Positions 47,383 through 49,927 of a DNA stretch of 64,000 nt are shown piece by piece. Made by a program: the position numbers and the translations under genes. Position 1 is the stretch's first letter, and each line of letters starts with the position of its first letter. Source of the DNA: a virus; IMG/VR virus record IMGVR_UViG_3300035670_000096; one strand, written 5' to 3'. The notes beneath the pieces are model-generated. The model was not told the origin of the DNA. It did not search any database and was given only the letters and a program-made list of their open reading frames with translations.

Positions 47383-47655
47383 TTAGTGGTCGTCGCCAGA
47401 GGACCACTCGTATCCAAATCCAACTACCGACCCTCTGCCGCTGCCTCTGCTGTGCTCTCCATGGATGGAGTCATCACCAGCTCCGTTCCCATGATTGTAT
47501 CCGCAGCCTTCGCTAATGCCAAGGCCGTCGCCGCTGCCGTCGTTAAAGCCTCCGCCGTCGCTGTAATCGTTTCCGTATCCGTAGCCTATGCCACCTCCTC
47601 CTCCGCTCCCGCCGCCGTAGTTGTTTCCGCTACCAAAGCCGTTGTCTTTAGCCAT
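47383..47655 (-). CDS. Gly/Tyr/Asp-rich low-complexity mini-protein (array A, member 9)
   Basis: Trimmed to MAKDNGFGSGNNYGGGSGGGGGIGYGYGNDYSDGGGF.... ATG lies 6 nt after the upstream stop. Confidence 0.6.
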   Translation of the reverse strand: MAKDNGFGSGNNYGGGSGGGGGIGYGYGNDYSDGGGFNDGSGDGLGISEGCGYNHGNGAGDDSIHGEHSRGSGRGSVVGFGYEWSSGDDH

Positions 47656-47660
47656 TAGTC

Positions 47661-47939
47661 CTAGATTCCGCTCCCTTCTGCGCCACCGCAGCCGTAGCCG
47701 CATAGGTGGTTGCTTTCGATCCGCTGCCAAAGACTTCGTGGCCAGTGCCCCCCGCTGCCGTCCCTCGCGCCGTGGCCGATGCTACAGCCATTACCGTATC
47801 CTCTCTTATTTCCGCTGTCTTCGCAAGTGAAGTCACTTCCGAATCCACACCCGTCGATAAAGCCAATGCTATCCGGGTTCATGTCGCCACCGATAGGGGT
47901 AGTTCCATGGATGTTATTTTCAATCGCTCTTGTATTCAT
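47661..47939 (-). CDS. Gly/Cys/Asp-rich mini-protein (array A, member 8)
   Basis: MNTRAIENN...GFIDGCGFGSDFTCEDSGNKRGYGNGCSIGHG...CGYGCGGAEGSGI. GGGAGG RBS. Confidence 0.6.
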   Translation of the reverse strand: MNTRAIENNIHGTTPIGGDMNPDSIGFIDGCGFGSDFTCEDSGNKRGYGNGCSIGHGARDGSGGHWPRSLWQRIESNHLCGYGCGGAEGSGI

Positions 47940-48165
47940 TTAACCTCCCGGCGCTCTCCTTTTCGCCGTTATCCTCTCCTGCTTGTTCTGCCCTCTCCCC
48001 GCAATCAGTACAGCGTCCATCTTCGAAGGCATGGCCGTATTTTTCGCAAGGTGTCCATTCGTCGTATTTGTTTTCTTCTCCACCACCGCCGCCACTGTAA
48101 GAGTCGTTCCCAAATCCGTCTCCGAAACCGGAGTCATATCCGAATCCGTATTTCCCGTTATTCAT
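47920..48165 (-). CDS. Gly/Tyr/Asp-rich mini-protein with C-terminal Cys knuckle (array A, member 7)
   Basis: MNNGKYGFGYDSGFGDGFGNDSYSGGGGG...CEKYGH..GRCTDCGE. AAAGGA RBS. Confidence 0.6.
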   Translation of the reverse strand: MNNGKYGFGYDSGFGDGFGNDSYSGGGGGEENKYDEWTPCEKYGHAFEDGRCTDCGERAEQAGEDNGEKESAGRLNEYKSD

Positions 48166-48177
48166 ACAGCATCCTTT

Positions 48178-48423
48178 CTACCCATTCCCATCCCCTTCTC
48201 GTTGGCTGGAGCCATATTTACGCCCACCTCCAAAGCCGGAATTAGTGCCGAAGCCGCAGTCTTTGCCACTGCCGTATCCCTCGCTTTTGTCTGTGCCTTT
48301 GCCTATACCTTCGCCGTAGCCGTAACCATCTTCTCTGCCGTCTTCGCCGCCGTAGCAGCCGTTTCCGCAGCCGTATCCCCAGCCGTCTCCGCATTCGTTC
48401 GTCTTGCCGGTTATATATTTCAT
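48178..48423 (-). CDS. Gly/Tyr/Cys-rich mini-protein (array A, member 6)
   Basis: Trimmed to MKYITGKTNECGDGWGYGCGNGCYGGEDGREDGYGYGEG.... ATG lies 2 nt after the upstream TAA. Confidence 0.6.
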   Translation of the reverse strand: MKYITGKTNECGDGWGYGCGNGCYGGEDGREDGYGYGEGIGKGTDKSEGYGSGKDCGFGTNSGFGGGRKYGSSQREGDGNG

Positions 48424-48424
48424 C

Positions 48425-48703
48425 TTACCCGTATCCATCGTCTTCTCTGTATCCGGAGCCGTCGCCGTCTCCATGTCCGTAGCCGCTCCCGTAACTAATC
48501 CCGCATCCACTCACGCAGCCGCCGCCGCCGAATCCTTCGCTGTTATCGGATCCATACCCTCCGCCTTCGTCGTCGTATTTACTCCCGCCGCCCCCAGAGC
48601 CGTAGTCGTCGCCGTATCCATGACCGCTTCCCCAGCCATCCCCGGTGCCATACCTGTCGCCCCAGCCGTCGCCGTATCCGTATCCGTACTCTTCTTTACC
48701 CAT
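48425..48703 (-). CDS. Gly/Tyr/Asp-rich mini-protein (array A, member 5)
   Basis: MGKEEYGYGYGDGWGDRYGTGDGWGSGHGYGDDYGSGGGG.... AGGGAGGA RBS. Confidence 0.7.
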   Translation of the reverse strand: MGKEEYGYGYGDGWGDRYGTGDGWGSGHGYGDDYGSGGGGSKYDDEGGGYGSDNSEGFGGGGCVSGCGISYGSGYGHGDGDGSGYREDDGYG

Positions 48704-48714
48704 GCGTCCTCCCT

Positions 48715-49032
48715 TTATCCGTCTCCATTACTGTCTCCGTCGCCGCATCCGTCACCTTCGCCGTCGCCGCATCCGTCACCTTCGCCGTCGCCGAAGCCGT
48801 CGCCGAAGCCGTAGCCGGAGCCGTAGCCGATACCGGAGCCGTAGCCGATACCGGAGCCGGAGCCGTAGCCGGAGCCGGAGCCGGAGCCGGAGCCGGAGCC
48901 GTAGCCGGAGCCGTATCCGGAGCCGTCTCCGGAGCCGGAGCCGTAGCTGTGTCCGCAGCCGCTTCCGTCGCCTTCGCCGTCACCGTCTCCGCGACCGTAG
49001 CCGAAGCCGTATCCGTGTTCCTCGTTATTCAT
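48715..49032 (-). CDS. Gly/Tyr/Ser/Asp-rich mini-protein (array A, member 4)
   Basis: MNNEEHGYGFGYGRGDGDGEGDGSGCGHSYGSGSGDGSGYGSGYGSGSGSGSGSGYG.... ATGA overlap with the upstream stop and a GAGGA RBS. Confidence 0.7.
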   Translation of the reverse strand: MNNEEHGYGFGYGRGDGDGEGDGSGCGHSYGSGSGDGSGYGSGYGSGSGSGSGSGYGSGSGIGYGSGIGYGSGYGFGDGFGDGEGDGCGDGEGDGCGDGDSNGDG

Positions 49033-49289
49033 ACTTCATCCTCTTCGATCTCTCCTGCGCCGTCACTGGAACCGCAGCCGTGACCGTCTTTGTATTCGTC
49101 GCTTAAGCCGTCGCTGTCGCCGCAGCCGTATCCGTCTCCGTCTCCGTCGCCGCCTCCGTCGCTGACTCCGCCGCCTGAGCCGCGACTATCTCCCCAGCCG
49201 TCTCCAATTACGTAGCTGTAGCCGTAGCCGTAAACGGAGCCGCCACCTAGGTCTATGCCGTATCCGTAGCCGTAATCCTCCTTACTCAT
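49029..49289 (-). CDS. Gly/Tyr/Asp-rich mini-protein (array A, member 3)
   Basis: MSKEDYGYGYGIDLGGGSVYGYGYSYVIGDGWGD...EIEEDEV. ATGA overlaps at both ends. Confidence 0.7.
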   Translation of the reverse strand: MSKEDYGYGYGIDLGGGSVYGYGYSYVIGDGWGDSRGSGGGVSDGGGDGDGDGYGCGDSDGLSDEYKDGHGCGSSDGAGEIEEDEV

Positions 49290-49567
49290 ATCCCGTCTCC
49301 GTCGCCGTAGCCGTAGCCGGAGCCGTAGCCGATACCGGAGCCGTAGCCGATACCGGAGCCGTAGCCGTAGCCGTAGCCGTAGCCGTAGCCGTAGCCGTAG
49401 CCGGAGCCGGAGCCGGAGCCGGAGCCGGAGCCGGAGCCGGAGCCGTAGCCGTATCCGGAGCCGTATCCGGAGCCGTCTCCGGAGCCGGAGCCGTAGCCGG
49501 AGCCGGAGCCGTAGCCTTCTCTGCGGTCGTTTTCTTCCACAGAGATATTCTTTTCATTCGCAGTCAT
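49286..49567 (-). CDS. Gly/Tyr/Ser-rich mini-protein (array A, member 2)
   Basis: MTANEKNISVEENDRREGYGSGSGYGSGSGDGSGYGSGYGYGSGSGSGSGSGSGSGYGYGYGYGYGYGYGSGIGYG.... Confidence 0.7.
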   Translation of the reverse strand: MTANEKNISVEENDRREGYGSGSGYGSGSGDGSGYGSGYGYGSGSGSGSGSGSGSGYGYGYGYGYGYGYGSGIGYGSGIGYGSGYGYGDGDGI

Positions 49568-49594
49568 TTACAATCCCTCCCGTTTATGAATACC

Positions 49595-49627
49595 ACCAGC
49601 GGATTCCTTACTGGCTGATCCGCTGGT
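49595..49627 (-). other. perfect 10-bp inverted repeat (hairpin) between array A members 1 and 2
   Basis: ACCAGCGGAT (49595-49604) and ATCCGCTGGT (49618-49627) with a 13-nt loop. No U-tract follows on the - strand. Confidence 0.5.
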
Positions 49628-49654
49628 GTCTCTAACACTGGCTACAAGTCGTTT

Positions 49655-49927
49655 TTAATTCCCTCCTCCTATGTAGCCGTATCCATCGGACTCCGCGCCT
49701 CCCCTGCCGAACGTTAGGCCGTTCCCAGCCCCGTCATCGCCGATCTTTTCTGCGTTATCCATGCCAAGAATTGCCTCTCTGACATGGCCGAAGCCCCCTT
49801 CCGTTTCCATTATTCCTGTCTGCCCGCCTCCATCGCCATTAGTTTCCTTGCTGCCGAATCCGCTGGCTCTTCCAAAGGTGATACGAGAAACCTTCTCTTC
49901 GTACTCTCTAATGCCTTTGTTTGTCAT
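49655..49927 (-). CDS. Gly-rich mini-protein (array A, member 1, divergent)
   Basis: MTNKGIREYEEKVSRITFGRASGFGSKETNGDGGGQTG...GRGGAESDGYGYIGGGN. Confidence 0.55.
   Translation of the reverse strand: MTNKGIREYEEKVSRITFGRASGFGSKETNGDGGGQTGIMETEGGFGHVREAILGMDNAEKIGDDGAGNGLTFGRGGAESDGYGYIGGGN

Follow-up and report, generated by a model that had tools for sequence, protein, structure and literature searches.

The 64,000-nt stretch of viral DNA considered here (IMG/VR virus record IMGVR_UViG_3300035670_000096; the whole stretch is called the window) encodes, at 47383-49927, nine consecutive leftward open reading frames (ORFs) of 81-105 aa, designated g1-g9, in whose products glycine often alternates with Ser, Tyr, or Asp. 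We are highly confident that all nine are genuine genes read in the Gly/Tyr frame and that they are members of a (Gly-X)n repeat family linked to the gene for DUF6948, a small protein with a predicted Sm-like fold. A broader explanation, that the nine are amplified paralogs of this family and that their products act with the Sm-like protein, has in our view an even chance of being right. The original prediction, made from the letters of the window, had described the nine ORFs and six further members at 55668-59057; the nine are present as described, and the six (h1-h5 and h4b) belong to the same family, for 15 copies in three clusters. A key piece of context was absent from that prediction, namely the Sm-like DUF6948 gene at 59430-59137.

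A conserved two-gene module

A profile built from the window paralogs gave 19 weak matches in a 5.8-billion-entry database, among them repeats fused to globular domains such as DUF7666. It was through these matches that the repeat fusions and the DUF6948 neighbor came to light, for in a P22-like phage one such fusion protein is encoded directly behind DUF6948. A tblastn search of isolated and GenBank phages with the window DUF6948 returned 16 records, and the next ORF encodes a (Gly-X)n protein in every distinct locus examined. Carriers include Ralstonia phage NK-7 (where the repeat gene is annotated as a "fibroin heavy chain-like protein"), Pectobacterium phages Sabo, Taid, Abuela, and Pappous, Dickeya phage Setonix, Iodobacter phage PhiPLPE, Vibrio phage IKEMa6-1, and Chlorobiaceae phage CV-1-33.

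The same arrangement holds in metagenomic viruses. At least 591 stretches in IMG/VR encode DUF6948, and among the 66 best loci with sufficient downstream DNA, 64 have the repeat gene directly after it. In 50 of 61 loci, the overlap between the start of the repeat gene and the end of the DUF6948 gene measures exactly 13 nt, the A of the ATG being the final base of one codon and its TG the opening of a conserved Trp codon. The pairing also holds in reverse: when loci were fetched solely by a degenerate DNA pattern for GYGSGDGYG, 87 of the 102 had DUF6948 no more than 1.5 kb upstream, in most cases at a distance of 0-50 nt. Among one-genome-per-species references, 148 stretches from many phyla match DUF6948, and the pair is present in 64/64 reference loci, which belong to the Pseudomonadota, Nitrospirota, Planctomycetota, Bacteroidota, Bacillota, Acidobacteriota, Cyanobacteria, candidate phyla radiation (CPR), and other groups. 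The protein database holds at least 8000 DUF6948 homologs. Because the paired synteny is seen in both the forward and the reverse test, we regard DUF6948 and the repeat gene as a conserved two-gene module. It usually heads an early operon, after repressor/Cro-type genes and before recombination and replication genes.

The gene directly downstream of DUF6948 is the founding copy of the family. In the window that position is held by h1, which does not overlap DUF6948. The original prediction had called such a gene family highly unusual in a phage; this is borne out for the copy number but not for the type of gene, which is found after DUF6948 in phages and prophages numbering in the hundreds. 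Some of the DUF6948/repeat loci (within L226-L305) lie in genome bins labeled as archaea (Methanobacteriaceae, Woesearchaeota, Bathyarchaeota) or CPR bacteria, labels that could reflect either the true host range or binning contamination.

DUF6948, of ~95 aa, is predicted to adopt an Sm/LSm-like barrel fold. Its AlphaFold2 (AF2) model is a small barrel with a mean predicted local distance difference test (pLDDT) score of 95.9, and the best 50 Foldseek matches in the Protein Data Bank (PDB) are all Sm or LSm proteins, with target-normalized TM-scores (TMt) mostly of 0.6-0.75 (range 0.41-0.75). Foldseek matches among viral models were confined to other DUF6948 proteins and unnamed proteins.

Coding status of the repeat ORFs

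The Gly/Tyr frame is the sole stop-free frame across all 14 ORFs with an ATG start, a set that leaves out h4b. Spacing of the G-x-G type exceeds that of shuffled sequences in 12 of the 15 ORFs (z 2.8-9.2), and the alternation of glycine is clear in g2-g6, g9, and h2-h5 and weak in g1, g7, g8, and h1. Elsewhere in the window, alternating-Gly ORFs are limited to antisense frames of these same repeats and a weak 39-aa segment at 38279-38395.

Further evidence comes from a 1013-bp metagenome contig (L306) from an unrelated sample, which aligns to 48685-47670 of the window with 95.5% nt identity. Of 43 substitutions, 27 fall on the third codon position of the Gly/Tyr frame (binomial p = 7e-5), and the only indel is a 3-nt in-frame deletion that loses a Gly codon, so that g5-g8 stay open. 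For g5 and its ortholog on this contig, the rates of synonymous and nonsynonymous change are dS 0.56 and dN 0.063, giving dN/dS of 0.11 in the Gly/Tyr frame; the remaining sense frames yield 1.86 and 1.25. This difference indicates that the Gly/Tyr frame is under purifying selection. Also intact are g6 (5 substitutions) and g7 (2 substitutions), and g8 carries one synonymous change. The original prediction had staked its reading beforehand on the kind of indel, the presence of stops, and the frame that is conserved, and on each of these the comparison favors the Gly/Tyr frame.

The divergence from this contig is uneven, at 13% for g5, 2% for g6, 0.8% for g7, and 0.4% for g8; g5 may be a hot spot of mutation or gene conversion, or a recombinant allele.

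Composition and predicted disorder

The 15 window members span 35-105 aa and contain 22-46% Gly, 8-17% Tyr/Phe/Trp, 9-23% Asp/Glu, and 1-11% Lys/Arg. Aliphatic residues make up 3-13% of most copies and ~20% of the degenerate g1 and g8. Across the family, the residue between glycines (X) is Ser in 37% of cases, Tyr in 26%, Asp in 22%, and Phe in 4%, with Cys at 0.6% and Lys, Arg, Pro, Gln, Leu, and Ile nearly missing. The main X residues are each written with synonymous codons (TCC/TCT, TAC/TAT, GAC/GAT), and the Gly codon differs by lineage, being GGC in most, GGG in some, and GGA in others, with a GC content of the flanks of 31-73%. Since the same amino acids are thus written with different codons across lineages, the constraint must act on the protein.

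The low-complexity character given in the original prediction is confirmed. The disorder prediction that it had called for was run on g5, for which the AF2 model has a pLDDT of 39 and contains no secondary structure, β structure included; g5, the sole member modeled, is thus predicted to be intrinsically disordered. The short "ME.." leader of family members follows from the DUF6948 overlap, and the protein is repeat nearly throughout. Some members of the family bear a C-terminal globular domain of unknown family. No conserved C-terminal motif was found among the window repeat proteins, h3 alone ending in GGE.

The N-terminal consensus M-x-(K/E)-E-(D/E)-Y-G-Y-G put forward in the original prediction fits g3, g4, g5, and h4b but no other members.

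The repeat also occurs in other protein contexts. A (Gly-Ser/Tyr/Asp)n stretch is fused to a full ParB protein (ParB_N plus HTH_ParB) at L054 2782-4917, and other fusions join it to DUF7666 or to small domains with a "GAC.EG" or "LHATLSP" motif (examples besides L054 are L007 8001-8528 and P0016, P0018, P0144, P0146, and P0148). Across these fusions, the stretch behaves as a mobile disordered module. In three tandem ORFs upstream of DUF6948 in one viral contig (L086 1100-1894), the residue that alternates with Gly is His, Cys, Gln, or Arg (GHGHCHGHGQGQ...); these ORFs may represent a relative of other composition or an alternative frame of a repeat.

Turnover and amplification of the repeat genes

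The repeat genes change far faster than the genes around them. In IMGVR_UViG_3300002220_000288 (L002), a close relative, the DNA aligns to the window with 79% nt identity at 50296-49936 and with 94% at 47353-46000, the latter covering ERF and the genes beyond. In the place of g1-g9 there is a short AGGAG-containing spacer, with nothing in it but the ribosome-binding site of ERF, running from the stop of the 60-aa ORF to the ERF ATG. Thus, g1-g9 constitute a 2.58-kb cassette between the ParB operon and ERF. On the ParB side of it, the flank of ParB-like gene and 60-aa ORF has 93% aa identity to the relative.

Two other members of the same ~95-kb lineage, L003 and L100, give the same picture. 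All non-repeat genes of the 51-59.4-kb region have orthologs in both, with 68-100% and 45-89% aa identity, respectively, but the window repeat genes have no recognizable ortholog in either. The DUF6948 proteins of the window and L003 match at 100% identity, but the adjoining repeat genes show no significant mutual similarity. L003 has 5 repeat ORFs and another relative at least 8, at differing positions.

How the repeats change is seen best in closely related phages. The Pectobacterium group (Sabo, Taid, Abuela, Pappous, and Setonix) shares the leader MSKLIKPE(K/R)YG on repeat proteins of 53-85 aa, which are built from GGC-TCC, GGC-TAC, GGC-GAC, and GGC-TTC units in varying order. The repeat body changes by 6-nt units, and its length and order vary even where DUF6948 is identical, as in L223 and L224, which have identical DUF6948 proteins and different repeat bodies.

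Within the window, the paralogs share exact strings of just 8-23 nt, g2 and g4 (53 nt) excepted, which rules out recent tandem duplication; judged by this, the paralogs are old or fast-diverging. The g2-to-g3 junction, GGGAT[A/G]TGAGTAAGGAGGATTAC, is found again at the h4-to-h4b junction, which indicates that a two-gene unit has moved between clusters. Arrays of 3-8 copies occur in other phages too, with copies that are likewise more degenerate and contain Cys, His, Asn, and Trp. Among the loci examined, the window ranks with the largest amplifications.

Proposed mode of action

A tentative proposal for how these proteins work is that each is a disordered, polyanionic, Tyr-rich chain acting with the Sm-like DUF6948, as a tail, as a condensate scaffold, or as both. 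We base this proposal on the composition being held while the sequence varies, on the fixed overlap with DUF6948, and on the occasional fusion of the two. The products would act by bulk chemistry rather than through a fixed fold, as flexible polyanionic chains bearing Tyr, and would work jointly with DUF6948, their putative partner. In one version, the chain would be the detached counterpart of the disordered Gly-rich or acidic tails of Sm-fold proteins, and it would occupy or compete for nucleic acid-binding surfaces and so tune the binding of RNA or single-stranded DNA (ssDNA). In another, multivalent Tyr "stickers" would, at an early stage of infection, gather the Sm-like protein and its nucleic acid cargo in a condensate. 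The two versions are not mutually exclusive. The extra copies, which are more degenerate and richer in Cys, His, Asn, and Trp, could be diversified variants of one activity. At its widest, the proposal is of a pan-bacterial phage system in which the Sm-like protein and a hypervariable chain, mimicking single-stranded nucleic acid or scaffolding a condensate, reprogram the early handling of RNA and ssDNA, with slippage and amplification (15 copies here) varying dosage and specificity; this we put forward as a possibility of equally tentative standing.

Several points weigh against the family assignment and the partnership. The Sm-like fold of DUF6948 is a prediction, and a DUF6948 profile searched against PDB sequences found no Sm protein, only chance matches. 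The nine cassette genes lie 9-12 kb from DUF6948, to which they are tied by paralogy and not by adjacency, and g1, g7, and g8 are weak members of the family, with 22-28% Gly and G-x-G spacing barely above that of shuffles (z 1.2-2.4). The only fusion of DUF6948 and a repeat tail in one ORF, at L109, could be an assembly frameshift. In addition, pure repeats can be open in all six frames, and a 6-nt unit preserves the frame automatically, so the evidence for the frame is weaker for the family at large than for the window.

The closest analogue of the module is the arrangement of an Sm core with a Gly-rich tail. Sm-fold proteins often carry disordered Gly-rich or acidic tails. In eukaryotes, SmD1, SmD3, and LSm4 have tails of Gly-Arg dipeptides that are recognized by the Sm-like Tudor barrel of SMN in the assembly of RNA-protein particles; these tails are basic, methylated on Arg, and fused to the Sm core. 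The phage module likewise associates an Sm-type barrel with Gly-X dipeptide repeats, but its repeats are acidic and aromatic and are separately encoded. Acinetobacter Hfq has an Sm core followed by a disordered C-terminal tail of GGFGGQ repeats with an acidic tip, and this tail affects RNA binding and autoregulation (PMC11617691). The number of repeats matters for both RNA handling and autoregulation (PMC11617691). The phage system shares with it a small Sm-fold protein (predicted in the case of DUF6948) and a long, repetitive, disordered segment that is Gly-rich and aromatic and has acidic residues, and at L109 the two parts stand in one ORF as they do in Hfq. It differs in that the phage tail is normally a separate gene with the 13-nt overlap, in that the repeat has a period of 2 (Gly-X) rather than 6, and in that acidic residues run along the whole chain instead of the tip only. 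The phage sequence is also hypervariable and in some phages amplified, and DUF6948 has no sequence similarity to Hfq or Sm proteins.

Other likenesses are more superficial. The original prediction had compared the products with the [G/S]Y[G/S] domains of FUS. The phage repeats are Gly/Ser/Tyr-rich with regularly spaced aromatics (13-15%), and g5 is predicted to be disordered; however, they are 12-16% acidic, have near-zero Gln and a strict alternation of Gly, and are 35-130-aa proteins of bacterial viruses. With acidic residues up to 16% and Gln near zero, they fall outside the class of FUS-type prion-like domains, which phase-separate, are nearly uncharged, and are rich in Ser, Tyr, Gly, and Gln. 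Silk fibroin (GAGAGS/GAGAGY) also has Gly at every second position, but in place of Ala the phage proteins have bulky or charged residues (Tyr, Asp) at X, no β structure is predicted, and the products are intracellular and made from early genes. An RTX β-roll (GGxGxDxUx), whose nonapeptide has a hydrophobic position, was rejected because the period is 2 and not 9 and aliphatics are 3-13% in most copies. A Pup-like tag, a small disordered protein that has a conserved GGQ/GGE at its C terminus and always co-occurs with its ligase, was rejected as well, because C-termini are unconserved and a ligase is missing at 80/80 other module loci.

Alternative explanations

The location of the repeat genes could point to a different role. 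The window contains two pairs of Amidoligase_2 and class-II GATase genes (~46% aa identity between the pairs), and the mini-proteins might be substrates or tags of these enzymes. As disordered carriers, they could be amidated or ligated at their C-termini or on Asp/Glu side chains, in loose analogy to Pup with PafA/Dop or to additions of the RimK type. The three members of the ~95-kb lineage all have repeat genes interleaved with those for GATase and amidoligase, one repeat ORF of L100 lies between GATase and amidoligase and two lie just before its second amidoligase, and the proteins are rich in carboxylates. Outside this lineage, however, the association disappears: neither enzyme is encoded within 2.5 kb in any of 80 other loci with DUF6948 and a repeat gene, orthologs being found only in L003 and L100, and distant phages that do carry amidoligases have no repeat genes nearby. 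The proteins also lack a conserved C-terminal motif of the GGQ/GGE type, and the nine-gene cassette is ~3 kb from the nearest such enzyme gene, that of the second GATase (52700-53752). In published work, genes for amidoligases and GATases of phages, often accompanied by ParB homologs, are reported from clusters for thymidine hypermodification (PMC8989533, PMC13229309). We therefore regard the link between amidoligase and repeats as one of neighbors specific to this lineage, and the substrate role, which the original prediction had listed as one of several, as unlikely. A stand-alone role in anti-defense or host takeover, in which the chain acts as a decoy that mimics single-stranded nucleic acid or jams host nucleases, sensors, or AAA+ proteases, is improbable too, if marginally less so. 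Amplification and rapid turnover would then mirror an arms race, and the extreme turnover beside conserved genes, the multicopy arrays in several phages, the place of the module at the start of early operons, and the polyanionic and aromatic composition all agree with this idea. Nevertheless, no PADLOC model or known anti-defense family was matched, the near-obligate pairing with DUF6948 argues against a protein acting alone, and repeat slippage by itself can explain the variability.

We consider it very unlikely that the ORFs are incidental and that the functional unit is the hexanucleotide-repeat DNA or RNA itself, for example as a structured RNA or a protein-binding array. Such a reading would account for the 6-nt unit GGC-NNC, for the six frames that are often all open in pure repeats, and for the frequency with which gene callers skip these ORFs. 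It is hard to reconcile with the dN/dS of g5, low in the Gly frame only, with an ATG fixed 13 nt inside the end of DUF6948, with the use of the same four amino acids through different codons over GC contents of 31-73%, or with degenerate copies that are open in the Gly frame only. Equally remote is the idea that the products are precursors of ribosomally synthesized and post-translationally modified peptides (RiPPs) of the microcin-B17 type, as the original prediction had suggested, or metal-binding or cross-linked structural material. Some copies are Gly/Ser/Cys-rich, with 8 Cys in h5 and 5 Cys plus 4 His in g8, and like McbA, the precursor of microcin B17, the phage product is small and Gly/Ser(/Cys)-rich. 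Unlike McbA, it has no conserved leader and no conserved Cys, and no YcaO, radical-SAM, McbBCD-type (cyclodehydratase/dehydrogenase), or similar modification enzyme was found among the window proteins scanned. Because the protein is nearly all repeat and the leader is a by-product of the DUF6948 overlap, a leader-dependent pathway is disfavored. As for structural material, the genes sit in the early region and not among structural genes, and no β structure is predicted. The partnership of a disordered chain with Sm-like DUF6948 thus remains the reading that we prefer.

Organization of the repeat clusters and their flanks

The positions of the repeat genes and their neighbors are collected in Table 1. 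All nine cassette ORFs start with ATG. The original prediction had placed a GGAGG-type ribosome-binding site before each; a purine-rich motif of this kind is clear for g2, g4, g5, g8, and g9 but weaker for g1, g3, g6, and g7. The junctions of g2/g3 and g3/g4 are ATGA overlaps, and g7 and g8 overlap by 20 nt; the other junctions are gaps of 1-13 nt, apart from the 87-nt spacer between g1 and g2. This spacer contains a hairpin, and the 93-nt region around it (49660-49568) folds at -27.2 kcal/mol (z -2.75 versus shuffles). The hairpin was not scored as a terminator and may have a role in processing or stability. Neither promoters nor terminators were found above chance within the array.

Table 1. 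Repeat genes, associated elements, and neighboring genes of the window
Feature	Position	Strand	Length	Description
DUF6948 gene	59430-59137	-	97 aa	Pfam PF22253, E 5e-33
h1	59057-58794	-	87 aa	Gly/Ser/Asp-rich; next gene after DUF6948, 79 nt downstream
Class-II GATase	58777-58121	-		Pfam match; neighbor, embedded in second Gly-repeat cluster
Amidoligase_2	58094-56892	-		Pfam match; neighbor, embedded in second Gly-repeat cluster
h2	56899-56645	-	84 aa	Start within final codons of amidoligase gene
h3	56629-56381	-	82 aa	
h4	56378-56094	-	94 aa	
h4b	56097-55990	-	35 aa	GTG start, overlaps h4 stop (GTGA); sequence opens (M)SKEDYSSGFGFGYG
h5	55979-55668	-	103 aa	Cys-rich (8 Cys)
Second amidoligase/GATase pair	54983-52700	-		GATase at 52700-53752
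ParB-like gene	51066-50122	-		Pfam HTH_ParB; upstream flank of cassette
60-aa ORF	50122-49940	-	60 aa	Flank, between ParB-like gene and cassette
Cassette g1-g9	49935-47354	-	2.58 kb	Holds exactly g1-g9; missing in relative L002
g1	49927-49655	-	90 aa	Gly 28%, degenerate; opens inserted cassette; ATG with upstream AAGGAAA; G-x-G z 1.2
Hairpin	49628-49594	-		Perfect 11-bp stem in 87-nt g1/g2 spacer, the array's only long spacer; no T-run after
g2	49567-49286	-	93 aa	Near-pure (Gly-Ser/Tyr)n: Gly 41%, Ser 18%, Tyr 17%; G-x-G z 9.0
g3	49289-49029	-	86 aa	N terminus MSKEDYGYGYG; ATGA overlap with g2
g4	49032-48715	-	105 aa	Gly 46%; ATGA overlap with g3; G-x-G z 9.2
g5	48703-48425	-	92 aa	N terminus MGKEEYGYGYG
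g6	48423-48178	-	81 aa	ATG 1 nt past g5 stop
g7	48165-47920	-	81 aa	Gly/aromatic N terminus, then non-repetitive C terminus with C-x4-H-x6-C-x2-C
g8	47939-47661	-	92 aa	Degenerate, Gly 24%, 5 Cys, 4 His; 20-nt overlap with g7
g9	47655-47383	-	90 aa	Closes cassette; ERF begins 40 nt downstream
ERF single-strand annealing protein	47342-46326	-		Pfam ERF; downstream flank; 97% aa identity to L002

As an observation on the neighborhood, the two amidoligase/GATase pairs of the window, its ParB gene (50122-51066), a ThyX gene (24584-25405), and two glycosyltransferase genes (27289-29739) together resemble gene sets reported near thymidine-hypermodification pathways (PMC8989533, PMC13229309), no search for TET/JBP or kinase genes having been made.

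Detectability and significance

Sequence search is nearly blind for this repeat family. Scans of the mini-proteins against Pfam, PHROGs, NCBIfam, and PADLOC gave only sub-threshold low-complexity matches to TrAA12, and neither megablast of the window at 42-62 kb nor tblastn of g5 found a match among phages, g5 being masked by the low-complexity filter. The window has no near relative among sequenced phages. A full HMMER scan of 1.84 billion representative proteins with the paralog profile gave 42 weak matches, none below 1e-10. Of ten mini-proteins looked up in a protein collection, three are there with the same boundaries, all of them degenerate copies: g1, g7 (P0015, with a variant, P0181), and g8. 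In the source assemblies, too, g1 is present as a called gene. Repeat genes missing from annotations or gene calls include those of PhiPLPE (L014, ~1173-1406), a Candidatus Kuenenia prophage (L225, ~6276-6383), and g2-g6 and g9 of the window. Genome annotation thus systematically under-reports the family.

The module of DUF6948 and a repeat gene appears to be undescribed; a literature search found nothing on DUF6948, DUF7666, the peptide motifs, a phage "fibroin heavy chain," or phage pairs of Sm-like and glycine-rich proteins. The repeat partner has no Pfam, PHROG, or NCBIfam model, yet it stands at nearly every DUF6948 locus examined, an example of how a protein family that escapes similarity searches can be delimited by synteny. 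The module would be an early-gene unit common among temperate and lytic phages, with an intrinsically disordered protein at its core. It is present in several culturable phages, which makes experiments feasible, and the amplification in the window supplies natural variants for asking which sequence features matter.

Other features of the window

A 948-aa SNF2/ResIII helicase encoded at 42297-45143 (minus strand) contains an intein (Intein_splicing and PT-HINT matches, aa 144-488). Inside the intein region, a 298-aa ORF in another frame (43688-44584, minus strand) is conserved in L002 at 3325-4221 and may encode a homing endonuclease. Two further proteins are oversized and have Pfam matches that are split in two, the 636-aa ribonucleotide reductase small subunit (20565-22475, minus strand) and a 705-aa DnaB-like helicase (31554-33671, minus strand), which suggests that they carry further inteins or insertions. 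Finally, a 1739-aa protein encoded on the plus strand at 14711-19930 has a NUDIX domain at aa 828-945 and, toward its C terminus, an ADP-ribosyltransferase toxin domain at aa 1551-1720; it may be an ejected virion protein.

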